Source: an uncultured Bifidobacteriaceae bacterium (lineage in GTDB: Bacteria > Bacteroidota > Bacteroidia > Cytophagales > UBA9547). Taken from it: a DNA stretch of 64,000 bases. Shown here piece after piece: positions 33,281-54,093 of this stretch. Below the pieces are notes generated by a model. The model had not been told where the DNA came from. It saw nothing but the letters and a program-made list of their open reading frames with translations, and ran no database searches. The position numbers and the translations under genes were made by a program. Within the stretch, counting starts at the first letter, position 1. The number at the start of each line of letters is the position of its first letter. Location of the stretch: NCBI GenBank assembly GCA_964572965.1, contig CAZNHL010000009.1:4836-68835 (forward strand), written 5' to 3'.

Positions 33281-33296
33281 GTTTTAGAATACACAG

Positions 33297-33325
33297 AAAA
33301 GGCCGCCTTATTGACGGCCTTTTTT
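33297..33325 (+). terminator. Rho-independent terminator after glyQS
   Basis: AAAAGGCCG-CCTTATTGA-CGGCCTTTTTT. Confidence 0.75.
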
Positions 33326-33331
33326 GTTCAA

Positions 33332-33388
33332 TAACCACAGAGAACACAGAAAGTAAAGCATATTATTGAGTTAAAGCTTCTGTGGTTA
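33332..33388. repeat. CACAGA-type REP-like inverted repeat
   Basis: TAACCACAGA(GAACACAGA)...TCTGTGGTTA: 10-bp perfect arms with an internal CACAGA duplication. Confidence 0.6.
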
Positions 33389-33400
33389 AATAATTACTGG

Positions 33401-34648
33401 ATGAGAAAACATTCCTTTTTTTATTTGACAGCTCTTTTCTGCGGACTACTTTTTCTTTGTTCGTGTGAGGAAAACAATCCGGTCATCAGGAAAATACGTA
33501 AACCCAAAGCTGCCAATGACCCTATACAGGTTCCCTGCATAGAATCGCTGATTCCGGGTGCAGACCAAATGGAACTTACTGCCAGAGGAATTGATGCAGT
33601 AACTAAATCAGCAAAAATAGACAGCATTTTTAAGGTAAAAGCAGCCCGTTCCCATTTTAACGGAGCGGCATTGGTTGTCCAGAAAGGTGTTGTACTTTAC
33701 AGGAAAAGCTTCGGTATCAGATGCAAAGAAGGCCGCAAATCAGACAGCCTTACGATTGATGCAAAATTTCAACTGGCCTCGCTTTCCAAAACATTTACAG
33801 CAATTGCCACACTCAAGCTTATTCAGGAAGAAAAAATAAGCCTTAACGATACACTACAGAAATTCTTTCCGGAACTTCCTTATCCTGATATTACCGTACA
33901 AATGTTGCTGAGCCACCGCAGCGGATTACCTTATTATGCCTACGCTTTTGAAGACAGCGCCAGAAGGGTGAAGTATAATCCCAACAACGCCGAAATTATT
34001 AACTGGCTGGTGAGCTCACACCCAGCCCGCTATAATTATCCGAACCGCGGCTTCTCCTACAACAATACCAATTACATGCTGCTTGCCAGTATTATTGAGC
34101 AGGTCAGCGGCATGACTTACGATGCCTACATACGCCGGGAAATATGTGAACCACTGGGCATGAGGGACACCTGGGTTATTACTACACCAAACGACTCCAT
34201 CAATATCAACAGAACCTGCGGCCATGAGCGTTGGGGTAAAGTACCTTTCGACTATTTCGACAATGTAGTTGGCGACAAAGGGGTTTATTCTACCGTGGAC
34301 GATCTATACAAGTGGTACCTGGCTCTTAATTCTAATTGCCTGCTCAATTACGAAATGCTGCAAAAAGCATTCACACCTTACAGCAATGAGCATTACGGAT
34401 TAAAGAATTACGGACTTGGCTTCCGGATGATACTTGACAAAAAAACTAAAAAACCCAAATACATTTATCACAACGGCTGGTGGAAAGGCTATAATTCACT
34501 ATTCTGGTTTATTCCAGAAACACAAACAGTCATTATCATTCTCGGCAACGTGCGTAACCGAGTCGTTTACGATATCAAAAGCATTGTAAAAGTGCTGGAA
34601 AACGGCATGGAAGCAAGTGAAGATATGGAGGATGAGTTATCATACTAG
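33401..34648 (+). CDS. Serine hydrolase, class C beta-lactamase/PBP4 family lipoprotein
   Basis: Lipobox-like LCSC; FQLASLSK (SxxK), LLSHRSGL, FSYNNTNY (YxN) and HNG. Confidence 0.9.
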   Translation: MRKHSFFYLTALFCGLLFLCSCEENNPVIRKIRKPKAANDPIQVPCIESLIPGADQMELTARGIDAVTKSAKIDSIFKVKAARSHFNGAALVVQKGVVLYRKSFGIRCKEGRKSDSLTIDAKFQLASLSKTFTAIATLKLIQEEKISLNDTLQKFFPELPYPDITVQMLLSHRSGLPYYAYAFEDSARRVKYNPNNAEIINWLVSSHPARYNYPNRGFSYNNTNYMLLASIIEQVSGMTYDAYIRREICEPLGMRDTWVITTPNDSININRTCGHERWGKVPFDYFDNVVGDKGVYSTVDDLYKWYLALNSNCLLNYEMLQKAFTPYSNEHYGLKNYGLGFRMILDKKTKKPKYIYHNGWWKGYNSLFWFIPETQTVIIILGNVRNRVVYDIKSIVKVLENGMEASEDMEDELSY

Positions 34649-43652: not shown

Positions 43653-43692
43653 CAAATATTGCGAGATTATTTACAAATCTTGCAATATTTAC
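43653..43692. repeat. Palindromic site A (copy 1 of a direct-repeat pair flanking Fic-1)
   Basis: C-AAATATTGCGAGATT-ATTTACA-AATCTTGCAATATTT-AC: 15-bp arms with one mismatch and a 7-bp spacer. The right arm overlaps the Fic-1 stop codon. Confidence 0.9.
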
Positions 43693-44987
43693 ACATTATA
43701 GCTTTGTAAAACATCATCAAAGTTTTTTGATCTGATGAAGTTCTGTTTGATTTTATTTACCTGAATAATCTCCAGGAAACCCAATTCAACCAGCAGCTTC
43801 AGATCAGCACGCGCCGTAAAATTTGAGATGCTGAAACGTTTCTCTATTTCTTTGCTATTTAAAACCCTGTCGGCATCGTCGTTTACAATTTTCAGAATCT
43901 GAGCCATTCTGTCATTTACATTCGGGATCTTCAAAAACTTAGCGGCTTGTACTACTTCCTTCTGCTTTCTACTCATATAGTCCTTAAGCGCCTCAAAAGC
44001 CATTTCCATGGTTTTGATGTGGTAGGTAATAAAGTAGCTCAAATCATTGTCATCAATTTCAGTATACAGATATGCCTTTTCATACTGATTCTTACTATTC
44101 TGAATGATTCGGGATATCGACAAATATTCCGTCAGCCAATATCCTTTTTTCAGCATATACCAATAAAACAGCGCACGTGCCGTACGTCCGTTTCCATCAG
44201 TGAAAGGGTGGATCCAACCAATCATAAAATGAATTATACAACCTTTTATAATCGGATGGATAAAGCTCTTCGAATCATTATTAAAGAAAATACACAGTTC
44301 TTCAATTAGCTTTTCCAGTTCATCTTTCGGAGGCGGAATATGGACAATATCTCCGTTACTATTGTTGGCTACAAAAATCTCGTCATTCTCCCTGAAGTTG
44401 CCTTCTTCATTGGCATTATCCAGCGTTTTATAAGCTATCAGTCTGTGGATTTCAAGTAAACCTTCCGGCGTCAGGTCATCATTTTTATGCTGAATAATAT
44501 GCTTCATGGTCACATAATTATTCATAATCATCTGCTCCGATTTCGTTCTCGGCTTTTGCTCTTTCTGTATCAGTTCCTTGGCCTTCTTTCGTGTGGTATT
44601 CGCCCCTTCCATCTGGCTGCTGCTGATGGCTTCTTCCATAATGGAGCTGATAATAAACTTTGTTTTATCGGTTTCCGCAATGCTGATATTGCTACCCAAA
44701 GTACCTCCGATATTCAGGTCAAACTGATGCAGGGCACGCTGCATAAAATCAGTAATCACATAAGTAAACTGATGCTTCCCAAACTGCAGATGGCTTGCAT
44801 TGAGCGTTCTGTGTAATTTAACAGCATTCCAAAACTGGCTGGCATCGTGTGGTTTCGATTTATATTTGATCTTATCCCAATACAAATATTCGTCCTGGAC
44901 ATTTTTCAATACACCTGTCACCTGCAAATCTACCATGAGATTAACAGTAGTGCTGTCTTGCTTTGCGGATGGGGCTTTTTCTAACAT
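43689..44987 (-). CDS. Fic family protein 1 (class II, C-terminal winged HTH)
   Basis: Catalytic HPFTDGNGRTAR, inhibitory SSQMEG, C-terminal wHTH (KEIEKRFSISNFTARADLKLLVELGFL). Confidence 0.95.
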   Translation of the reverse strand: MLEKAPSAKQDSTTVNLMVDLQVTGVLKNVQDEYLYWDKIKYKSKPHDASQFWNAVKLHRTLNASHLQFGKHQFTYVITDFMQRALHQFDLNIGGTLGSNISIAETDKTKFIISSIMEEAISSSQMEGANTTRKKAKELIQKEQKPRTKSEQMIMNNYVTMKHIIQHKNDDLTPEGLLEIHRLIAYKTLDNANEEGNFRENDEIFVANNSNGDIVHIPPPKDELEKLIEELCIFFNNDSKSFIHPIIKGCIIHFMIGWIHPFTDGNGRTARALFYWYMLKKGYWLTEYLSISRIIQNSKNQYEKAYLYTEIDDNDLSYFITYHIKTMEMAFEALKDYMSRKQKEVVQAAKFLKIPNVNDRMAQILKIVNDDADRVLNSKEIEKRFSISNFTARADLKLLVELGFLEIIQVNKIKQNFIRSKNFDDVLQSYNV

Positions 44988-45014
44988 CTGATAGATTCAA
45001 TAGATCAATCTAAA

Positions 45015-45054
45015 CAAATATTGCGAGATATTGATATAATCTCGCAATATTTAC
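45015..45054. repeat. Palindromic site B (copy 2)
   Basis: C-AAATATTGCGAGAT-ATTGATATA-ATCTCGCAATATTT-AC: 14-bp perfect arms, same 37-bp length and same flanking C/AC as site A, 28 bp upstream of the Fic-1 ATG. Confidence 0.9.
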
Positions 45055-45067
45055 TTGAATTAATAGA

Positions 45068-46183
45068 CTAAACCCTAACTAATCTCATTAATGGCTCAAA
45101 TGAATACAAAGCAGGTCTTCTTCCTGAAGCAGCTTCCTTTTGTTTCAGATAACCATTTTCTATAAGTTTTTTTACCACCGCAGCAGCTGTTGCAACCGGA
45201 ATTTTAGTGTTACTGATAAATCTGTTATTTCTGAAAACAGGGTTAGTAAATACAAAGTCCAAAACACCCACACTCCATTTTGATGAAAGCAATTCAGAAA
45301 ATTCAACTTTCATTTCTTCATACAAGCTCCTGATATTTTCAGCAATCTGCAGGTTTTGAACTGCCTGCTTTTCTACAGCAATAAGGAAAAAACGTATCCA
45401 TGCATTCCAATCATTGGTTCTTGAAACATCTCTCATAGCCTCAATGTATGCATCTTTATTTTCTTCAAAATAGCCGCTAATATAGAAGTGTGGTTGCGAT
45501 AATACACCCGATTTCCAAAGTAATAATGTGATAAGCATTCTTCCTATTCTTCCGTTGCCATCCTGAAAAGGGTGCAAAGCTTCAAATTCAAGATGCGCTA
45601 CTGCCGTGCGTATAATAGGTGGTTCACTACTACCTTCCATATAAGCAAAAAGTTTGTCAAGGCCATCGGGCAGCTGTTCAGCACTGATTGGTACAAACTG
45701 GATTTTTTTTGCAGAGCGGTCGGCAAGATAATTTTGCTCTTTTTTAAACTCCCCGGGCGACTTTGTTGCTCCACGTCCAAAATACAATAATTGCTGGTGC
45801 ATTTGTTTAATAAAACTCTGAGAGAAAGGATAACCATCATTCAAAGCCGACTGTGCACTTTTCAACGCTCTTTGATATAAAACCGTCTCTACTACATCAC
45901 TTCTTGTTCCTTGTGGTTCAGTCCCGTCATCGTCAGCTTCGTACTCCAGTATTTCATCCATAGTACTGATTGTACCTTCTATTCTGGAAGATAAAACCGC
46001 TTCCCTGTTTCTAAGTGGGGCTAGCAAAATTTCGCTGTTATGCAGGTTTTTGAGCATCTGGTCAAAACGTGCCAATGCATCAGTAGCACTCAGCAGTTCT
46101 TGTATAAAAAACTCATACCGAATACCTATAGGCGGAAATTTATCGTAATGATAATGTACAGCCTCATCCAAATTGAAGTTCAT
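45068..46183 (-). CDS. Fic family protein 2 (Fic/DOC N-terminal domain, class II, C-terminal wHTH)
   Basis: EAVLSSRIEG, HLEFEALHPFQDGNGRIGR, LYISGYFE-like segment and C-terminal HTH (VATAAAVVKKLIENGYL). Confidence 0.95.
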   Translation of the reverse strand: MNFNLDEAVHYHYDKFPPIGIRYEFFIQELLSATDALARFDQMLKNLHNSEILLAPLRNREAVLSSRIEGTISTMDEILEYEADDDGTEPQGTRSDVVETVLYQRALKSAQSALNDGYPFSQSFIKQMHQQLLYFGRGATKSPGEFKKEQNYLADRSAKKIQFVPISAEQLPDGLDKLFAYMEGSSEPPIIRTAVAHLEFEALHPFQDGNGRIGRMLITLLLWKSGVLSQPHFYISGYFEENKDAYIEAMRDVSRTNDWNAWIRFFLIAVEKQAVQNLQIAENIRSLYEEMKVEFSELLSSKWSVGVLDFVFTNPVFRNNRFISNTKIPVATAAAVVKKLIENGYLKQKEAASGRRPALYSFEPLMRLVRV

Positions 46184-46190
46184 ATACTAG

Positions 46191-46406
46191 TTTGTCTACA
46201 ATAAAATGCATTTTCTATCATACAAGATAGCTTATCGACGGAAATTATCAAATAACAATACACAAAAGGTTTTGTCTACAAAAAACAACACACAAAACGG
46301 TTTGCCTACAAAAAAAGGCAAAAAACAGATGACAAAATGATTTGTCTACATAAAACAGCACCCAGGAAGCTTTGCCTACAAAAAATGAACAAAAACGGAT
46401 GACAAA
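46191..46406. repeat. Phased TTTGYCTACA direct-repeat array with a 70-bp tandem duplication, upstream of Fic-2
   Basis: 10-mers at 46191, 46271, 46301, 46341 and 46371 (spacings 80, 30, 40, 30); 46261-46330 and 46331-46400 are diverged duplicates. Confidence 0.85.
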
Positions 46407-46454
46407 CAATATTTTGGTTGTTATCTCTTATATTTAAGTTTAAATGACAATCAC

Positions 46455-46730
46455 ATGACAACTCAAAAATTTGCCTGTCCGTGCTGTGGCTACAAGACAT
46501 TCACAGAAGAAGCCCACGGTACTTATGATATTTGTGAGGTTTGTTACTGGGAAGACGACCCTAACCAGTTCGCAGATCCCGACGATGAAGATGGTGCAAA
46601 CAGGGTTTCATTGAGACAAGCACAAAAGAACTTTGCCGAGTTTGGAGCCTGCGAAAAAGAAATGGTTGCCAACGTAAGAAAACCCCATGCCGATGAAATG
46701 AGGGATAAGGATTGGAAGCCATTGGTATAA
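46455..46730 (+). CDS. CPCC-family cysteine-rich protein
   Basis: FACPCCGYKT, YDICEVCYWEDD and GAN.VSL.QAQKNF form the Cys_rich_CPCC pattern. Confidence 0.85.
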   Translation: MTTQKFACPCCGYKTFTEEAHGTYDICEVCYWEDDPNQFADPDDEDGANRVSLRQAQKNFAEFGACEKEMVANVRKPHADEMRDKDWKPLV

Positions 46731-46761
46731 ATTCTGAGATTTACCTGTTTTTACAAGCCTT

Positions 46762-47436
46762 CTAAAAAATGGGCCTTATGAAGACAATCTGTATAATCAC
46801 CCATATCACAAGGCATATACCACCAAATATCATCATCTGTTTACCTAGCTCTCTGTCTCTCACAGAAAAAGCATTCACCAATTCTCCATTGGGCATTGTT
46901 TTCTTATGAGAAGACAGATGCCAGCCTATCATAAAGCCTAATATTCCTCCAAATAAAGAAGCAATATAGCCAGCGTATATCCAGGCTATTGGAAGTGTCT
47001 CTTGTTTTGACAAATCTGTTATTCTTTGCTTTCTGAGTAAGGCAACTAAGTCTCCATTTACTTCCTTGCCCCTTTCTTTCAATAGTTTTTGTGCAAGCAG
47101 AAAATCGAAGTGACCCCACTCATCGCGCTTCACAATTATTTCAAGTAACTCCTCATCAGTAAAATCAAATAGGTAATAGCTACGATCTATGTTTTCAAGT
47201 TGAGTCTTTGTGTTTTCCTGTAGCAACTGGTCAACCTTCAAAAAATCATCTTTCTGTAGTTTAACCCTGAATTCTCTCGACAATTCACTACTCCCAAAAG
47301 TATTGCCAAGCCCGATCGCTGTGGAATCTTCATCCAATAAATATTCTATATTATTTTCTTCGAGAAACGCCGTAAGCTCTGCCGCAGCCATGCGGTCATT
47401 GAATTTCTGAAAAGTAAGAAAGCGTTCTGTTGACAT
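46762..47436 (-). CDS. Membrane-anchored hypothetical protein with DUF2007-like N-terminal domain
   Basis: N-terminal F...AAAELT.FLE.NNI.Y and ..V.L...D...V.QLL resemble the putative signal-transducing (DUF2007) domain; two C-terminal TM helices. Confidence 0.65.
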   Translation of the reverse strand: MSTERFLTFQKFNDRMAAAELTAFLEENNIEYLLDEDSTAIGLGNTFGSSELSREFRVKLQKDDFLKVDQLLQENTKTQLENIDRSYYLFDFTDEELLEIIVKRDEWGHFDFLLAQKLLKERGKEVNGDLVALLRKQRITDLSKQETLPIAWIYAGYIASLFGGILGFMIGWHLSSHKKTMPNGELVNAFSVRDRELGKQMMIFGGICLVIWVIIQIVFIRPIF

Positions 47437-47465
47437 ATCGATTATACTTTAAAATCTCTTAACTA

Positions 47466-48923
47466 TTATTCACTTAACCAGCTCGATTTCTTAGCCAAAG
47501 TAACAACACCAATGTTGTACGCATAAATGGCCGCCGGAACAAAAGTGACATTTAAACCATCTATTGTTTTGTTACCCGGTTGATCTATTGTTGTCACCAC
47601 TGAAGCATTAAAGTTATTTGCTTTACAGAAATGAACCAAACTATTCAATTCATTCGGTTTATCGAAATAACGGTTAGTCCATTTTACTTCCACGCTCCAT
47701 TGCGGTTTGAAAAGCTTACTATCTACCAGTACAATATCAACTTCCCCTTCAGAGCGACCCATTTTCCAACGTGCATACTTCAGGTCCAGGTTTTCTCTGT
47801 GCATCCATTGTGAAAAAATTGCTGTTTCCACCATATTTCCGGTTTCCGGATCAGTTTCCTGAATCGGTGAAAATAAAGCTGTTCTCAGCGACGGATTAGT
47901 GAGATAGACTTTGAAACTGGTAATGCGTTTAAACTTTTTAGCATTGTCATCTATTTTGTGTATGACTTTGATTAAGAAAGCCGCTTCAAGATATTCCAGG
48001 TATTTTTTGATGATATCACCTTTAATACCACTATCCGTTGCCAGTTTTTCAAAAGAAAACTCATTACCGGTATTGTAAGCCAGGTAACTGAAAAAACTAT
48101 TGAGCTCCTGTACATCTTTAATTCCATACAGACTCGGCAAATCTCTCAGCAATACTTTATCCACAATATCGCTTTTTACATAACGTCCCATATCGCTTTG
48201 AATCTTTTCAGAGAAAACGACTTCCGGATAACCCCCGAAATTGAGATACTGAAAAAACTCTTTGTTAAATGCCTTATGATCGTGTGTAGTGAAAAACGGC
48301 ACTTCCTTGTTATTATAAACGATAGATTTTGACTGGACTAAGTGACTCAAACCTTTCAGGTGTATGTATTCATGAAAAGTAAGTGGAGGCAACATAAAAT
48401 CTGTGAACCGCCCTGCACCACTTTCAGAACTTTGCAAACGCAATGCCGCAGCTGCAGAACCGGAAACAATAAACTTAGTTTTAGGATACATATCTACCAA
48501 CACTTTAAGGTGACGCTCCCAGTCTTTCATGTATTGAATCTCATCAAAGAAAACAAAGCAGCCTTCCAGATTTTCCAGTTTTACAGCTTCCTTACCTAAC
48601 AAAAGAATCTCTTCCAAACCCAGGTGCATATAAATCGGATTATCGATTCCGATAAAGAAGATCTTCTGAGGTGGTACACCTTCAGTTATCAGCTCCTGAA
48701 TGGCATGAAACATCATCACAGTTTTGCCCACACGGCGCGGCCCCATCAACACGACCGCTCTTTTAACTTCTGTTTCTTTTACAAATGGATAAAACAAGTC
48801 AAAATAGAGACGTTTTGACATTTCGCGATAGACCTGCTGTACCTCGCCGGTTAGCCACCAGGGGTTTTCGTATTGCAAACGCTCTATCCGTTTGGCTGTT
48901 GGAATAACATGATTGAAATCCAT
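47466..48923 (-). CDS. AAA+ ATPase (AAA_14) with central wHTH and C-terminal DUF4143/PD-(D/E)XK-like domain
   Basis: Walker A GPRRVGKT, Walker B VFFDEIQ, VSGSA, YL.FGGYPE, G.MVET and EVDIV...SVEVKW. Confidence 0.9.
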   Translation of the reverse strand: MDFNHVIPTAKRIERLQYENPWWLTGEVQQVYREMSKRLYFDLFYPFVKETEVKRAVVLMGPRRVGKTVMMFHAIQELITEGVPPQKIFFIGIDNPIYMHLGLEEILLLGKEAVKLENLEGCFVFFDEIQYMKDWERHLKVLVDMYPKTKFIVSGSAAAALRLQSSESGAGRFTDFMLPPLTFHEYIHLKGLSHLVQSKSIVYNNKEVPFFTTHDHKAFNKEFFQYLNFGGYPEVVFSEKIQSDMGRYVKSDIVDKVLLRDLPSLYGIKDVQELNSFFSYLAYNTGNEFSFEKLATDSGIKGDIIKKYLEYLEAAFLIKVIHKIDDNAKKFKRITSFKVYLTNPSLRTALFSPIQETDPETGNMVETAIFSQWMHRENLDLKYARWKMGRSEGEVDIVLVDSKLFKPQWSVEVKWTNRYFDKPNELNSLVHFCKANNFNASVVTTIDQPGNKTIDGLNVTFVPAAIYAYNIGVVTLAKKSSWLSE

Positions 48924-48931
48924 AAATAAGT

Positions 48932-49034
48932 TTATTTATACATAAATGTAAAAATAAGCATGAAAAAAAAGTATTATTTTGACAAAAATGTAAAAATAAG
49001 GTTATTTTGGTGATATTTTCTGCTTATTTGTACA
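48932..49034. repeat. Operator-like half-sites TGTA(A/C/T)AAATAA upstream of the AAA ATPase
   Basis: Inverted copy 48932-48943, direct copies 48946 and 48988 (AAATGTAAAAATAAG twice, 42 bp apart), inverted copy 49024-49034. Confidence 0.65.
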
Positions 49035-49124
49035 ATAAAGTATATCACCAAGGCTTAATTTTCCAACTGTACTTTCAGGTAATTACTAGGCTTTTGATAA
49101 AACAATATCAACAGCTTGTTTTTA

Positions 49125-49182
49125 TAAAAAATGTCTAAAAAATGTCTAAAAAATGTCTAAAAAATCAGTGCTTAGACATTTT
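49125..49182. repeat. (TAAAAAATGTC)x3 tandem repeat plus an inverted copy inside the 3' end of the neighbouring gene
   Basis: Exact 11-mers at 49125, 49136 and 49147; TTAGACATTTT at 49172-49182 encodes KMSK on the minus strand. Confidence 0.85.
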
Positions 49183-50823
49183 CCATATCTTACCTTCGGG
49201 GTATATAAGACCCTTCATTCTAAGTTTTTGGAGATTGTTTTTTATTTTATTGCTTTTTTGAGCCGGATCTAATACATCTGGAAGTTTATCTAAAAGTACT
49301 TTTTCAAAATCTTCTCTTTTACCTTCCTTAAACTTTTTCAGATAATCCAGAATAATCTTCTGACAATACCCATCATCAATACCTCGCTGTTTTATATAAT
49401 CGGCCTTGTCACCGGTTACTCTGGCTACCGTAGCTGAAATATGAAAGTTTGGTTTTCTTCCTTCTATTAAGCTCTTTGCTTTTAGTTGATTAATTTCATC
49501 ATTATTTAAGCTTTTGGACTTGGAAACTTTATCCAGAGCGATAATATCTATCAAACTAAGGTCTGGTATAGCTGCTACTTTTCTGGCATAGTTAATATCC
49601 ACTACTTTACCTGTCACGGTTAACTTTACTGTATTGGGCGAAAATTCGTAATCGGGTAAAGGAAAAAATTTCTTGCGCTGAATATTAAACATCCTTTTAA
49701 TACCACTGCCAATAGCATCAATCATATTCAGATTAATCATTGCTTCTACTAAAAACGGATTGCGGTATGTAGGTTCTGGTGCATCGGAAATAACTACTTC
49801 CTCCACACTTGCCGGAATAAACTTTCCTGAGTTGATAAATACCAGTTTACCATCTTCATGTTCAACTACATTTATTTTACCCCCAAGTGTATAATCCTGA
49901 TGCGCAATACAGTTGTTTAAAGCTTCTCTTACTATATATGGATCATATTGATCTACTTCCTCAGGAAATAAACTACCGTCTGTAATATAGCGATACTTCA
50001 GGTTTCTGATTTTTTTATATACTTCTTCTGTATTTAATAATAACGGACAGGTAAAATGCTGGTAGTCTTTCTCTAGGTTATCGCTATCTCGAAGAATCCA
50101 TGAAACTTTTGCTGTAGAGGGGTTAATAAAGTGTTCTGATTCTGACTTGCCCAACAACAAAATAGCAGTGCGGGTAATTTTCCCTTTAATACACACTTTT
50201 GATTTATTCAGAAAAGTGATATCGTCCCATTGGTCAATTTCACTCACCAAATGGCTGTTTTTCTTTTTATATGACTCACGGGCTTTATGAATGGCTTCTG
50301 AAGACAAATCGTCAAATGTTGCATCGTCAATAATTGCGGCGCTCCAATCTTCTCCTTTTGTTTGTTCACGAATACGCTCTACTTCTTCAAGATTCAGGGC
50401 ATTCAACTCTTCACCGTCACGGCCATAATAATGTCCCTTCCAGGAAATGGGAATGCCTTTTGGTGCCGCAGGGATTTCAAATAATACAACTCTGCCGTTT
50501 GGTGTATTTGTCTCGTAAATTTCTATAAAAGTAATTCTGCCAGTGGTATGGTTTGCCAGCTCTGCCTTAAGACTGTCTAAATCATTATGATGAACTCTAA
50601 ATTGAGAGCCTACGATACTTTTGTCGCTATCCTTCACTCCAAAAACCAGCCAAGCCGAGCGTTTGCCTTTTAAATTAGCTTCATTACAAAGAGCAGAAAA
50701 ATACTTCCCTAGTTTATTAGAATCAAACTGATTATTCGCTTCTTTAAACTCCACCACTTCGTTTTCATACCCTTGCGAACAAAGTGATTGCAAAATGTCT
50801 TGTATTTCTGCCGGATTTCTCAT
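49165..50823 (-). CDS. Schlafen/AlbA_2 domain + HATPase_c_4 + wHTH protein (RecG-like C-terminal architecture)
   Basis: ENEVVEFKEA, YFSALCNEAN and WLVFGVKD (AlbA_2); VREALNNCIAHQDY, RNPFL and IDAIGSGIKRM (HATPase_c_4); C-terminal wHTH. Confidence 0.9.
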   Translation of the reverse strand: MRNPAEIQDILQSLCSQGYENEVVEFKEANNQFDSNKLGKYFSALCNEANLKGKRSAWLVFGVKDSDKSIVGSQFRVHHNDLDSLKAELANHTTGRITFIEIYETNTPNGRVVLFEIPAAPKGIPISWKGHYYGRDGEELNALNLEEVERIREQTKGEDWSAAIIDDATFDDLSSEAIHKARESYKKKNSHLVSEIDQWDDITFLNKSKVCIKGKITRTAILLLGKSESEHFINPSTAKVSWILRDSDNLEKDYQHFTCPLLLNTEEVYKKIRNLKYRYITDGSLFPEEVDQYDPYIVREALNNCIAHQDYTLGGKINVVEHEDGKLVFINSGKFIPASVEEVVISDAPEPTYRNPFLVEAMINLNMIDAIGSGIKRMFNIQRKKFFPLPDYEFSPNTVKLTVTGKVVDINYARKVAAIPDLSLIDIIALDKVSKSKSLNNDEINQLKAKSLIEGRKPNFHISATVARVTGDKADYIKQRGIDDGYCQKIILDYLKKFKEGKREDFEKVLLDKLPDVLDPAQKSNKIKNNLQKLRMKGLIYPEGKIWKMSKH

Positions 50824-50921
50824 GAGCCCATTGCTACTGTTTTTATTCTTACACCGTAGTTAAAGTTAAGCTTATTTATGGTTGCTGTATCTATCGTGTC
50901 AGGGTGTCAGGCATGATTTTA

Positions 50922-51251
50922 TTAATAGTTGTTACTCTGATCTCTATATTTTTCAACAAACTCATTCGCTTCTCCTAGGTTTTCTGGATATTTAGCATAG
51001 GACGAGTATACTTTACAGCCTCTAATTATTTCCATTTTTTCATAAACATGATCATAGTCGAAACCATTAGCTACTAAAAACCTAACTACTTCCCATTTCT
51101 GAGTTTCTGTTTTTTTAGGTGGTCGAAACCTGTGAGAAAGAAATACCATTGGCTTTCCACAATCAGGACAATTTGCAACTCGTCTATTATTGTAATCCGT
51201 TCCCTGACTAAACGATTTTCTACAGTCTAGGCAAACTACTTTATTACCCAT
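50922..51251 (-). CDS. Zinc-ribbon hypothetical protein (109 aa)
   Basis: VCLDCRKSF...CPDCGKPM..L.HRFRPPKK...KW. Confidence 0.72.
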   Translation of the reverse strand: MGNKVVCLDCRKSFSQGTDYNNRRVANCPDCGKPMVFLSHRFRPPKKTETQKWEVVRFLVANGFDYDHVYEKMEIIRGCKVYSSYAKYPENLGEANEFVEKYRDQSNNY

Positions 51252-51254
51252 GTT

Positions 51255-51467
51255 TTACTTCAACTTATTAGGATTCAATAACTCCCTTATATCCACATTT
51301 AAGACCTCTGCAATCTGAAGTAAAGTCTCCAATGATGGTTGAGAGTCATTGGTACACCAACGAGAAATTGTAGCAGTATTCTTTCCTAGCTTAGTTGCCA
51401 GCCACTTGTTTGTTCTTTCCTGTTCGGCCAGTACAACCTTTATTCTATTTATCGATGTCTTTGACAT
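51255..51467 (-). CDS. XRE-family HTH transcriptional regulator
   Basis: NRIKVVLAEQ.RTNKWLA.KLGK..ATISRWCTN.SQPSLETL..IA..L.V is the typical Bacteroidota Cro/XRE pattern. Start ATG 51467. Confidence 0.9.
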   Translation of the reverse strand: MSKTSINRIKVVLAEQERTNKWLATKLGKNTATISRWCTNDSQPSLETLLQIAEVLNVDIRELLNPNKLK

Positions 51468-51472
51468 AAAAA

Positions 51473-51703
51473 TCACTTTTCATTCTCAAAAAACCTACCT
51501 GTTGAAATTCCCAACCCTTCTGCCAAAAGCATAATAGTATTCAAGCTGGTATTGATTACCCCTGTTTCTATCCTCGCTATCTGACTAAGTGATATTCCCG
51601 TCCTGTGTGCTAACTCTTCCTGAGTAACACCTAGGGATTTACGGCATACTGCAAACTGTTTGCCGAATGCCTTTATCTTCTCTTTATTGACTGTTTTTCT
51701 CAC
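51473..51703 (-). CDS. XRE-family HTH transcriptional regulator
   Basis: FG......RK.LG.TQEELA.RTGIS.SQIARIE.G..N.SL.TI..LA..L; GTG start. Confidence 0.85.
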   Translation of the reverse strand: MRKTVNKEKIKAFGKQFAVCRKSLGVTQEELAHRTGISLSQIARIETGVINTSLNTIMLLAEGLGISTGRFFENEK

Positions 51704-51734
51704 AGGTCAAAGGTTAATAAAAAGTATCTATTCC

Positions 51735-51872
51735 TTAAACTTCAAACCTAAAAAGCAAATCAGGTTCTATGCCCATTCCTTTGCTTAGTGCATAAATAGT
51801 TGAAATTGTTGGGCTTCGTTCTCCTCTTTCCAGTCTGCTGATTTGTTTGGCATCTAATACTGTTACCTTCAA
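51735..51872 (-). pseudogene. 5'-truncated XRE HTH fragment, not in the ORF track
   Basis: Translates to LKVTVLDAKQISRLERGERSPTISTIYALSKGMGIEPDLLFRFEV*, the C-terminal half of an XRE domain. An in-frame TAG lies 9 codons upstream of this fragment. Confidence 0.7.
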
Positions 51873-51976
51873 ATACTTTGATAACCTGAAAGTAATCTAT
51901 TTCTCAAATACTACCAACTGGTAGTGGTCAAAGTGTTTCAGCTATAATATCTTTCCTCCATAGAAATTATTATACT

Positions 51977-52365
51977 ATGGAAAAACACAAACCAGCTATC
52001 AGCATTATGCTGGTGGAGCGTGACGAACTGGCCTTGCAGGTATTAGTATGGCTTTTTGAGAAAAGCGGCTATCTCGGCGAGCTGCTGTTGTTTACAGATC
52101 CGGACAAAGCTGCGGAATACCTCAACACACATAAGCTGCCTGACCTGATTATCGCTGACTTTTCCTGAACAAAATGGAGGAATTTAGCTTTCTGCTGCGG
52201 GCACAGGAACTCGCTGCTTCGTGGAACAAGCCAATGGCTATTGTTATTCTGGGAGATTTCGCTGGTGATATACGGGAAGTATCTACTGTAATTGCTGATA
52301 TCCATTTTGTGCTAAAACCGCTTACGCTTGATGTGGCTGAGAGGTGGATTGGGTTGCTACAGTAA
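51977..52365 (+). pseudogene. Stand-alone receiver (CheY-like) domain split by a 1-nt frameshift
   Basis: ORF 51977-52168 ends ...PDLIIADFS*. Adding one T to the T4 run at 52160-52163 gives DLIIADFFLNKMEEF... in frame with ORF 52174-52365, which ends FVLKPLT (conserved Lys-Pro). Confidence 0.75.
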
Positions 52366-52390
52366 GCGGCTTGCAAATCCTATGATCTGG

Positions 52391-52443
52391 CTTCGAGATT
52401 ATAAATCCCGAAGAGCAATTTTGCAGCAGCAGCTGCAAAATTG
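52391..52443. terminator. Two adjacent hairpins between the convergent receiver pseudogene and Fic-3
   Basis: CTTCGAGATT-ATA-AATCCCGAAG and the perfect CAATTTTGCAGC-AGCA-GCTGCAAAATTG. Confidence 0.62.
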
Positions 52444-52503
52444 AACTAGACTAGAGTTGTGTTACAAACATGTATCTCGTCAGTCCTCAAACTAGTTTGG
52501 TTT

Positions 52504-53577
52504 CTATCTTTTAGACAACAATTCAAACAAGCGTGTATTGATATAATAGTTTCCGGTTCCTAGTTTGGCTTTTTGCAAAAGGCCGTCTTCTGCCAGTTTG
52601 TTCAAATAGGAAGCTGCTGTTATTCTGGAAACTCCCAGATCATTCATCAGGAATTCTATTTTTGTATAAGGGTGTTTGAATAAATTATTCAACAAATCCT
52701 GGCTGTAAAACTTATAGTTTTCCCGTAACTCATACTTATAGGTTTGCATCAGTTTTTTTATCTGGCCGATAAGCTCAATCGTTTCTTTAGAAGTTTCTTC
52801 TATGCCTTTGATCATAAAGAGTAGCCATTCTTCCCAATTTTTCTTATCACGCACTTCTTGAAGCAGTCTGTAATAATCTGCTTTGTGTTTGATAATATAG
52901 CTACTCAAATAGAGGATCGGTAAGTTTTGCAGGTTTTCGAGGATAAGATAGAGAATATTCACAATCCGGCCAGTTCTGCCGTTTCCGTCATAAAATGGAT
53001 GAATACTTTCAAACTGATAATGGATAACAGCCATTTTAACGAGTGCGTCATATTCACTGAATTCCTTGTTATTGATAAAGGACTCCAGGTTGGCCATCAG
53101 ACTATCGATCTCATCATAACTTTGAGGAGGTGTATAAACAACTTCACCGGTTTGTGCATTTTTCAGGTTTGTGCCGGGCAGTTTTCTGAAGCCTGCTTTG
53201 TTTCGTTCCAATTCTTCCTGAATAATGAGAATGGTTTTATTGGTAATCAGCCCGCTTGCCGATGTCAGTTCAAAACCCTTCTTTAAGGCTGATATATAAT
53301 TCTGCACTTCTTTAGCATTTAATGAATTGAGTGCTTCAAAATTCAACTCTGACTTATACAGATCGTCATGTGTCGTAATGATATTTTCAATAGCTGAACT
53401 GTCTTTTGCTTCCTGTAAACCAAGGGTATTGATAAGAATATGCTGGTTCGGAATTGTAGAGGCTACTCCCTTCAATTCTGCCAAAGCAGCATGCGCAGCT
53501 GGCAGGCTCTTTAAAACCTTGATAGTCTCGAGATCATGCTTTACAGGTAACGGTTCTAATTTCCAGTTTGTCTCCAT
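52504..53577 (-). CDS. Fic family protein 3 (class II, C-terminal wHTH)
   Basis: QEAKDSSAIENI, HYQFESIHPFYDGNGRTGR and wHTH (LGVSRITAASYLNKLAEDGLL). True start ATG 53577 (METNW); the ORF-track extension reads through the repeat array. Confidence 0.95.
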   Translation of the reverse strand: METNWKLEPLPVKHDLETIKVLKSLPAAHAALAELKGVASTIPNQHILINTLGLQEAKDSSAIENIITTHDDLYKSELNFEALNSLNAKEVQNYISALKKGFELTSASGLITNKTILIIQEELERNKAGFRKLPGTNLKNAQTGEVVYTPPQSYDEIDSLMANLESFINNKEFSEYDALVKMAVIHYQFESIHPFYDGNGRTGRIVNILYLILENLQNLPILYLSSYIIKHKADYYRLLQEVRDKKNWEEWLLFMIKGIEETSKETIELIGQIKKLMQTYKYELRENYKFYSQDLLNNLFKHPYTKIEFLMNDLGVSRITAASYLNKLAEDGLLQKAKLGTGNYYINTRLFELLSKR

Positions 53578-53582
53578 AGTAC

Positions 53583-53736
53583 TATGTAAAGATTTTGCTG
53601 TTTTCTTTACATAGCAAAACCTATATGTAAAGAAAATCAATTTTTCTTTACATATGCAAAGTGTTATGTAAAGATTTTGCCGTTTTCTTTACATAGCAAA
53701 CCTCATATGTAAAGAAAAGTTAAAAATCTTTACAGA
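53583..53736. repeat. Four palindromic units TATGTAAAGA-N11-TCTTTACATA at an exact 41-bp period
   Basis: Left arms at 53583, 53624, 53665 and 53706; units 1+2 and 3+4 form an 82-bp duplication. The last right arm is TCTTTACAGA. Confidence 0.95.
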
Positions 53737-54093
53737 TACCTATCTCTCACTTTTTTATCAAAAACACTCACCTTAAAAATTCTATTTTCTACCGCTTCAA
53801 ATCAGTCTTTCACCGAAGTCCTGTTTCTACTGAAAAAATGCTGTTTTAAATTTTAAAAAAATTAAGAAGATGCATAATCAAAAGGCCGGAACTAATCCTA
53901 CTCAGAAGAAGCCAATCCGTAAAAAAAATGGTGTTGAACTAACGGCAAAGCGGGTAGTTAAAACGGGTACACACCTGCCCGTGATGCTGCAAGTCGGTGT
54001 TTTCGGGTTATTTTCTCCGCTAGGCTGGTAGTGCGTTGCTATTCTATGAAGTAATTTGTTAATTGGCTTATTCCGGTTATAAATTCTACATAG

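Follow-up and report, generated by a model that had tools for sequence, protein, structure and literature searches.

Why should five toxin-like effector genes, candidates for phage defence that lie within 10 kb of one another, each be accompanied by a different cluster of short DNA repeats, and to which protein, if any, do those repeats belong? The question is raised by an island at 43.6-53.8 kb of the window (the whole 64,000-nucleotide stretch of DNA analysed), which sits on contig C9 of a 4.45-Mb metagenome-assembled genome (MAG) of Bacteroidota type with 38.8% GC; the locus is present in three DNA metagenome runs. Nearly all genes of the island lie on the minus strand, among them three Fic genes that match the PADLOC model for SoFic (Fic-1, Fic-2 and Fic-3), an ATPase gene that matches PDC-S01 (AAA14) and a Schlafen gene (SLFN). 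A sequence-only reading had proposed that every such gene owns a private repeat array and, by means of a domain of the winged helix-turn-helix (wHTH) type in the encoded effector, represses itself. The answer to which our analysis leads is a related one: each repeat cluster is probably the cognate DNA site of the winged helix in the adjacent protein, and gene and site would together make up a portable one-gene module. All five clusters were found where that reading had placed them, and with their genes they are as follows.

43689-44987, minus strand: Fic-1, a class II Fic whose C-terminal domain is an HTH_11/DeoR-like winged helix
43654-43690: Fic-1 site A, a palindrome (AAATATTGCGAGATT-N7-AATCTTGCAATATTT) over the Fic-1 stop codon, between convergent genes
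45004-45064: Fic-1 site B, a palindrome with ATATTGCGAGAT arms and an N9 spacer
45068-46183, minus strand: Fic-2, a SoFic-like class II Fic
46191-46388: Fic-2 array, five TGTAGRCAAA units (gene strand) at a spacing of 80/30/40/30, with a 70-bp duplication
47466-48923, minus strand: AAA14, an AAA_14/DUF4143 ATPase-nuclease, PADLOC PDC-S01
48932-49044: putative AAA14 operators, proximal at 48932-48959 and distal at 48974-49000 (copies 42 bp apart), with an inverted arm at 49016-49044
49165-50823, minus strand: SLFN, Schlafen/AlbA_2 plus HATPase_c_4 plus a tandem winged helix, of the pSlfn HisKinase-HTH type
49125-49182: SLFN 3' array, three 11-nt TTAGACATTTT units (gene strand, 11-bp period) at 49125-49165, directly after the stop codon
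52504-53577, minus strand: Fic-3, a SoFic-like class II Fic whose winged helix is of the SoFic-like_C kind
53583-53738: Fic-3 array, four 41-bp units, each TATGTAAAGA-N11-TCTTTACATA, with an 82-bp duplication, ending 6 nt before the ATG

The start of Fic-3, earlier put at TTG 53640, is the ATG at 53577.

How far such clusters stand out from the rest of the genome was judged by a gene-centred repeat score, the number of bases between -150 and +10 that fall within exact direct or inverted repeats of 9-mers, calculated for 3,510 crudely called genes; a sliding-window scan of the genome returned 1,913 peaks, was too permissive and gave way to this score. Set against a genome-wide median of 0, a 95th percentile of ~35-37 and a 99th of ~52-55, Fic-3 scores 115, the highest value in the genome, AAA14 59 (99.5th percentile), Fic-2 46 (98th) and Fic-1 28 (91st), and the second-highest value (93) belongs to an AAA_14 paralog on contig C19. 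As a positive control, the score also picks three genes that we take to be AbiEi-like, HxlR-like and WYL-like, labels that are a reading of their sequences unchecked against Pfam. Proteins of these three kinds are classical autoregulated winged-helix proteins, and since genes resembling them score high, the score finds what it should. The claim that core genes of the window lack arrays holds for nearly all of them, the single high scorer being 33401-34648 (score 53). Its signal comes from a GC-rich terminator hairpin (AAAAGGCCG...CGGCCTTTT) and one 10-bp inverted repeat (TAACCACAGA/TCTGTGGTTA) at 33281-33400, and the core gene downstream is presumably beta-lactamase-like, judging from its sequence.

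The motifs are not only dense but exclusive. Each clusters solely at its own gene, other matches in the genome being single and mostly inside open reading frames (ORFs), and the three copies of the ATATTGCGAGAT palindrome, upstream of Fic-1 and over its stop codon, are the only ones the genome possesses. Searches with tblastn and hidden Markov models brought to light three more Fic genes and seven more AAA_14 loci in the same genome, a split pseudogene being one of these seven. Every AAA_14 gene has a palindrome or tandem repeat of its own, different from the others, directly before the ATG; the eight upstream regions (that of the window plus seven) score 36-93 (Mann-Whitney p = 1.5e-8), and the six Fic genes score 0-115 (Mann-Whitney p = 5e-4). 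The TGY core that had been taken to unite the five motifs occurs by expectation in ~35-45% of any 9-12-mer and is uninformative across families. Two details deserve a place beside these paralogs: the split AAA_14/DUF4143 pseudogene (C27:32637-33786) retains a strong palindrome (AATTAACGTTAATT...) ahead of its N-terminal piece, and dense ATGCACAA / TTGTGCAT repeats (C44:36350-36770) follow the stop codon of the one Fic paralog that is without an upstream array.

A private site calls for a private reader, and the winged helix predicted in all five proteins is supported, by profile matches in general and for SLFN by AlphaFold2 (AF2) together with Foldseek. The match is to SoFic-like_C in Fic-3 (E = 1e-19), to the full-length PADLOC SoFic model in Fic-2 (E = 8e-110, with a weak HTH_27 match) and to HTH_11/DeoR in Fic-1 (E = 1e-4). 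All three Fic proteins carry the catalytic motif (HPFTDGNGR at residue 260 of Fic-1, HPFQDGNGR at residue 204 of Fic-2 and HPFYDGNGR at residue 193 of Fic-3) and, towards the N-terminus, the intramolecular inhibitory motif SxxxE(G/N), as SSQMEG, SSRIEG and SSAIEN respectively; a Fic_N domain is found in Fic-2 and Fic-3 and weakly in Fic-1. AAA14 matches PF13173 (E = 1e-29), PF13635 (E = 6e-23) and the PDC-S01 models (E = 1e-56), and has Walker A (GPRRVGKT), Walker B (FVFFDE) and a C-terminal PD-ExK motif (EVD...EVK). Between these lies a middle winged helix at about residues 276-333, with an H2-turn-H3-wing pattern in the alignment of 118 homologs; a profile of this domain, run against PDB sequences, matches the MarR-family winged helix PA3341 (2fbh; E = 1.3e-3) over H2-H3-wing, and further matches are ArsR, IclR and GntR regulators. 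In SLFN, PF04326 (SLFN_AlbA_2; E = 5e-15) and PF13749 (HATPase_c_4; E = 5e-10) are followed by a C-terminus whose last 165 residues AF2 models, at a predicted local distance difference test (pLDDT) score of 80, as two winged helices of canonical H1-b1-H2-H3-b2-b3 topology. The second has its H3 at residues 520-536, including KIKNNLQKL, and its wing at 540-549; the compact Foldseek matches of this region are all winged helices, none of them at E < 1e-3.

Where the sites lie is most readily understood for the Fic genes. Inverted repeats cover the gene's own promoter at Fic-1, at Fic-3 and in the orthologs of both, 6-28 nt before the ATG; site B of Fic-1 ends ~28 nt upstream of that gene's ATG and lies 15 nt past the Fic-2 stop codon. 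Nearly all Fic-1 orthologs (41-70% identity) have a palindrome 0-25 nt before the ATG, close ones retaining ATATTGCGAGAT and distant ones having CTAATT-type arms, and one ortholog of 69% identity (L306) has kept a similar palindrome after the stop. The Fic-2 repeats are direct, not inverted, and occupy the divergent intergenic region that Fic-2 has in common with a gene of the Cys_rich_CPCC family (the CPCC gene). Arrays occur in all Fic-2 orthologs, with a unit that drifts from TGTAGACAAA through TGTAAACAA to TGATAAACAA; an extreme expansion was seen in an ortholog of 62% identity (L332), with four near-perfect 68-bp tandem repeats across 280 nt upstream. Elsewhere in the order, SoFic-like genes of other families (L073, L074, L076, L077, L080, L087) have the TATGTAAAGA half-site of Fic-3 in their upstream regions too, and SoFic-type half-sites share an (A/C)TGT core.

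A self-repressor model of the promoter-proximal arrays can draw, by analogy, on direct experiments with proteins of the same class. CccR of Yersinia pseudotuberculosis, a class II Fic with a C-terminal wHTH, represses its own promoter via two inverted 10-bp repeats near -35/-10 (PMC9755527), and the SoFic dimer of Shewanella oneidensis binds the 100 bp that precede its own ATG (bioRxiv 10.64898/2026.07.09.737422), a promoter-proximal position that makes autorepression likely there as well. Fic-1, Fic-2 and Fic-3 have the same architecture as these proteins (inhibitory helix, HPFxDGNGR and C-terminal winged helix). The island differs in that its sites are multiplied, with four palindromes at Fic-3 and five direct units at Fic-2; in that some lie past the stop codon or flank the gene at either end, which is unreported for CccR and SoFic; and in that three modules stand side by side, each with a different motif.

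AAA14 extends the pattern to a second family. Its unit is the palindrome CTTATTTTTACA-TTTR-TGTAAAAATAAG, present in two 27-nt copies, and the centre of the proximal copy, TACATTTA, is a -7-like box; the Bacteroidota -7 consensus is TAnnTTTG. A footprint was drawn from 80 orthologs of 71-87% identity, found in Arcicella, Flavobacterium, Pedobacter, Algoriphagus and many MAGs. Alignment of their 77 non-redundant upstream regions shows two conserved 28-bp palindromes, CTTATTTTTACA-TTTG-TGTAAAAATAAG, 42 bp apart, separated by spacers that are not conserved, and a palindrome centre (TACATTTG) that fits the -7 consensus ~22 nt before the ATG. The layout in the window is the same, if slightly degenerate, and is the anatomy to be expected of an operator placed over the core promoter of a short-leader gene. 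Near-identical AAA14 orthologs of Bacteroidota type also turned up in MAGs labelled Bifidobacterium, Bdellovibrio and Deltaproteobacteria (L201, L206, L250), where mis-binning is the probable cause, if not recent transfer.

A wider survey covered about 100 related genomes. For 118 AAA_14/DUF4143 genes from about 45 of them the median upstream score is 42, with 59% of genes at or above the 95th percentile, 9% at zero and nothing downstream; in the first 34 genes alone upstream enrichment reached p = 8e-22. Upstream regions are likewise enriched in 27 SoFic-like genes (p = 7e-11), 26% of which have large arrays just past the stop codon, typically where the upstream score is zero, and one of which (L078) has an identical 77-nt array on both sides. 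In 28 HATPase_c_4 genes of the order the upstream region is not enriched, and arrays abut the stop codon in seven. Repeats thus travel with orthologs into unrelated genomes and contexts, as the proposed check on homologue flanks had anticipated, and they do so in step with protein similarity: motifs are shared by 1% of AAA_14 pairs below 35% identity, by 47% of those at 55-65% and by 100% of those above 80%. Orthologs share motifs down to ~55-65% identity, so that a motif belongs to an orthogroup and is not, as had been claimed, private to one gene. Privacy in the stricter sense survives only in that each motif clusters at its own gene and that paralogs differ; the Fic-2 array, for its part, is shared with the CPCC gene. 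Together these observations show an array to behave as a cis-element of the gene beside it.

A conserved small ORF downstream of the Fic genes, which might own their 3' arrays, was looked for and none was found, the downstream neighbours being variable. In Escherichia coli a 47-residue antitoxin gene, AS1, has been published downstream of SoFic (PMC12249575), and its position is the one at which SoFic-like genes of the order often carry arrays (L078, L081, L083, L088, L090, L100).

SLFN does not follow the promoter pattern. Its own upstream region scores 0 and has no array, and the gene is probably co-transcribed with those upstream of it; the repeats sit instead at its other end, ~200 nt upstream of the AAA14 start and between SLFN and the AAA14 promoter, and an inverted copy (AAAATGTCTAA, 49172-49182) encodes the last SLFN residues, KMSK. 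This placement is a property of the family: among 21 non-redundant orthologs taken from metagenomes (49-83% identity), 17 have 10-11-bp-period tandem repeats that start at or inside the stop codon. Orthologs ending in ...KxWKMSK carry TTAGACATTTT repeats plus the inverted copy that encodes KMSK, and those ending in ...RQWxLDE(I/A) carry TTAGACGAGAT repeats, one unit of which encodes LDEI and the next of which holds the TAG stop. A helix residue ~20 codons upstream covaries with the repeat (KN[N/L]LQ with TTAGAC-ATTTT, KN[I]LQ with TTAGAC-GAGAT); a swapped tail comes with a swapped array at 82% identity, and where the tail is the same the array is kept at 62%.

Many SLFN orthologs (among them L261-L266, L272 and L276) and some Fic orthologs were seen inside apparent type I restriction-modification (R-M) operons, as were L072 and L306; in these operons the upstream gene overlaps the SLFN or Fic ATG and the 3' array stands ~20 nt before a gene whose product starts M..TEKGLE.. 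and which, from these first residues and with no family check, we take to be hsdR-like. In such operons the 3' array could also gate expression of the restriction subunit.

How, then, might the arrays work? We infer binding, the sign of regulation and the roadblock from sequence, as follows. At the promoter arrays (Fic-1 site B, Fic-2, Fic-3 and AAA14) the effector, as a dimer or a higher oligomer, would bind palindromes or phased repeats that are predicted to lie across the -7 box and the start of transcription of a gene with a short leader, and would repress its own transcription, keeping a potentially toxic AMPylase or ATPase-nuclease at a low level that is buffered wherever the module lands. 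At the stop-codon arrays (SLFN, Fic-1 site A and many SoFic relatives) the C-terminal winged helix would bind 11-bp-phased sites behind its own coding sequence, where the effect would most likely be that of a roadblock or a loop anchor. A roadblock could provide gene-specific feedback without a promoter of the gene's own, and could gate read-through into the next gene; SLFN orthologs often lie within type I R-M operons. The autoregulated operator module of the sequence-only reading remains the probable account of promoter-proximal arrays, where CccR and SoFic offer precedent, and does not extend to SLFN, whose array is 3' throughout the family and not at a promoter.

Several observations weigh against so tidy a scheme. 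Members without arrays exist, namely ~9% of AAA_14 genes and several Fic genes with no detectable upstream array (that on C44 among them), so that 'every' gene having one was too strong a claim. Some AAA_14 relatives have very long perfect palindromes (arms of up to ~32 nt, L048), longer than typical operators. The Fic-2 array might just as well act on the divergent CPCC gene, and several motifs hold TTTG or TAnnTTTG words, whereby part of the repetition may be promoter duplication. A full-length AF2 model of AAA14, built on a seven-sequence alignment, was poor (pLDDT 54.6) and was not used. The proposed co-evolution of operator and wHTH fares unevenly. In AAA_14, like recognition helices do occur with identical motifs (ETVQRY with TCGACAAATT in C19, L061 and L063), and motif-sharing pairs show a residual helix similarity of +0.048; since 7% of equal-length random protein blocks reach that value, the helix itself is not established as covarying with the motif, and co-evolution is at best suggested by these alignments. 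In SLFN the covariation of tail and array is clearer, but may in part come from physical linkage, adjacent DNA having been transferred together, and the last 4-5 codons themselves belong to the array.

Four other explanations have to be set beside that of self-directed operators. The one that survives best, though we consider it unlikely, is that the arrays are docking or storage sites, at which an effector oligomer would be tethered at its own locus in the manner of Orc1/ORB or iterons and released when infection disturbs DNA, transcription or occupancy, control of expression being secondary. Phased multi-copy arrays (an 11-bp period in SLFN, 41-42 bp in Fic-3 and AAA14) exceed what a simple repressor needs, and some genes, such as Fic-1, L078 and L024, have arrays on both sides; DNA binding stimulates the enzymatic activity of the related Fic enzyme CbFic2 (PMC10628234), and the Walker region of AAA_14 is weakly similar to ORC4. 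There is, however, no sign of activation, and the promoter-centred operators of AAA14 and the Fic genes, with CccR autorepression as a model, suffice for most arrays. Docking is in any case compatible with autoregulation and not exclusive of it.

Appreciably less probable is an RNA-level role, in which hairpins in the 5' untranslated region would hide the start codon and hairpins at the 3' end would terminate or stabilise the mRNA, the encoded protein being uninvolved. Many AAA_14 palindromes do end at or over the ATG (L044, L048, L050, L052, L102, L103), an 11-bp stem with T-rich sequence behind it can be formed by the SLFN inverted copy and first repeat, and the Fic 3' arrays of L078 and L083 precede a terminator and must therefore be transcribed. 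The composition of the arrays tells against it: 53 of 70 AAA_14 arrays contain direct repeats, direct repeats are the only kind in 13 of those 70 and in 7 of the 17 SLFN-ortholog arrays, and most others mix direct with inverted copies. Tandem direct repeats cannot form hairpins, so RNA hairpins cannot explain the direct-only or mixed arrays. In many palindromes, moreover, the arms stand 9-26 nt apart, as is typical of sites for dimers; conservation of the arm sequences goes beyond mere complementarity; and the SLFN stems are AT-rich and weak.

We give slightly less credence still to the idea that the repeats are boundaries of mobile single-gene cassettes, attC-like or terminal-repeat-like, which a recombinase, or else the nuclease itself, would read. 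Similar palindromes enclose Fic-1, one 18-mer occurs both before and after a Fic gene on C121, ~100-nt direct repeats flank another on C98, the 77-nt array of L078 stands on both sides of its gene, and orthologs are scattered over distant Bacteroidota. Yet most genes have one-sided arrays, the arrays are centred on promoter boxes, and AAA14 orthologs keep their operators in many contexts without flanking duplicates. Since each orthogroup has a motif of its own, further, the arrays could not be read by one common recombinase, and a search for a recombinase domain among the scanned island ORFs returned none; with a different motif at each gene and no recombinase among those ORFs, the arrangement is not that of integron-type attC cassettes. 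At the C98 paralog itself (C98:9254-10354, direct repeats on both sides) and at an AAA_14 gene flanked by a 65-nt repeat in other genomes (L006, L008), the flanking repeats may have no relation to the operator arrays and be scars of insertion or a small repeat element.

Least credible is the notion that the repeats are general boxes unlinked to the adjacent protein, whether of one shared host regulator or from simple promoter duplication, for although several units hold TTTG or TAnnTTTG-like words and the 70-bp and 82-bp duplications could multiply promoters, there are five different motifs within 10 kb and eight more at the AAA_14 paralogs, conserved positions reach well past the promoter words, and the privacy of the motifs, with arrays that differ between paralogs of one genome and no regulon, excludes the shared host regulator that the sequence-only reading had itself named as a refutation.

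The remaining genes of the island offer neighbours of possible interest to the modules.

46455-46730, plus strand: CPCC gene, Cys_rich_CPCC (PF14206, E = 3e-33), divergent from Fic-2
46762-47436: hypothetical gene of 224 residues with no family match
50922-51251, minus strand: Zn-ribbon-like gene of 109 residues, upstream of SLFN
51255-51703, minus strand: two XRE-type HTH_3 genes, upstream of SLFN

The 224-residue protein lies 29 nt after AAA14, and the Zn-ribbon-like protein has the XRE pair on one side and SLFN on the other; each may be a partner of its neighbouring effector. The island as a whole is flanked by an RND efflux operon (37.8-43.6 kb, plus strand) on one side and by housekeeping genes (MGS-like, OYE reductase, glycogen synthase) on the other.

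What of this is new? The Fic part is already of a published kind, so that self-operator control is no novelty in one family out of the three, and the earlier belief that no general description exists has to be given up there; for the other two families it stands, a full-text literature search having found no description of arrays of this kind at PDC-S01 or Schlafen-HisKinase-HTH genes. PDC-S01 (COG1373) is an abundant, unvalidated defence candidate (PMC12988326) and a member of the PD-(D/E)XK group (PMC3424549), and AAA14 of the window agrees with it in its model matches, its Walker A and B motifs and its nuclease motif; a middle winged helix with a private operator array, or autoregulation, is undescribed in those two sources, the literature searched. 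Prokaryotic Schlafens include phage-activated tRNases, and a HisKinase-HTH class is listed among them (PMC13056530), whose domain set (SLFN_AlbA_2, HATPase_c_4 and C-terminal HTH) SLFN shares. That study tested other architectures, with only 100-150 bp of upstream DNA, and does not mention repeat arrays; SLFN differs in the conserved array at its stop codon. The placement of phased sites at a stop codon is apparently undescribed so far.

Older systems nonetheless foreshadow both halves of the scheme. Controller (C) proteins with the C-boxes of R-M systems, and the operators of type II/IV toxin-antitoxin systems, are cases of a private palindromic operator read by the system's own HTH protein. 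AbiEi is an autoregulated toxin-antitoxin example (PMC7319586). The likeness lies in mobile, potentially toxic defence modules whose specificity diversifies between systems; the difference is that there the binder is a separate small protein or antitoxin, whereas here it is fused to the effector, with toxin, sensor scaffold and repressor in one gene. For sites at a gene's end, LacI at O3, in the 3' end of lacI, reportedly acts as a roadblock that yields truncated mRNA and tmRNA (transfer-messenger RNA) tagging, and the RepA-CIS-ori arrangement of plasmid R1 pairs a cis-acting protein with a site just after its own gene. In these, as at SLFN, a protein's site lies at or behind the end of its own coding sequence, with feedback or cis-action; what sets the present case apart is that the arrays are multi-copy, are phased at 11 bp and start within the last codons.

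It is tempting to generalise, and we do so as a speculation that we hold to be doubtful. Single-gene anti-phage effectors of the PDC-S01, Schlafen-HisKinase-HTH and SoFic-type Fic families might share a safety-catch design, a fast-evolving winged helix paired with a phased array of its own sites at its own gene, either across the promoter or from within the last codons onwards. Occupancy of the array would repress the gene, roadblock the 3' end or the next toxic gene (e.g. hsdR) and hold the effector on the chromosome as an inactive oligomer, and its loss on infection would release and re-induce it.

The families concerned are not minor ones: PDC-S01 is reported to be the fourth most common defence candidate in prokaryotes, without known mechanism or ligand, and Schlafen-HisKinase-HTH proteins make up one fifth of bacterial Schlafens. 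If the arrays are what we propose, a natural DNA ligand would be written beside every such gene, and binding, DNA co-structures, the rules of wHTH specificity and regulation would all become testable. When such genes are cloned with just 100-150 bp of DNA upstream, or lacking the 3' array, control elements may be stripped away, which could explain toxicity or absent phenotypes in defence screens. The logic of toxin-antitoxin systems and C proteins would then extend to fused one-gene modules, with sites placed, unusually, at the stop codon.

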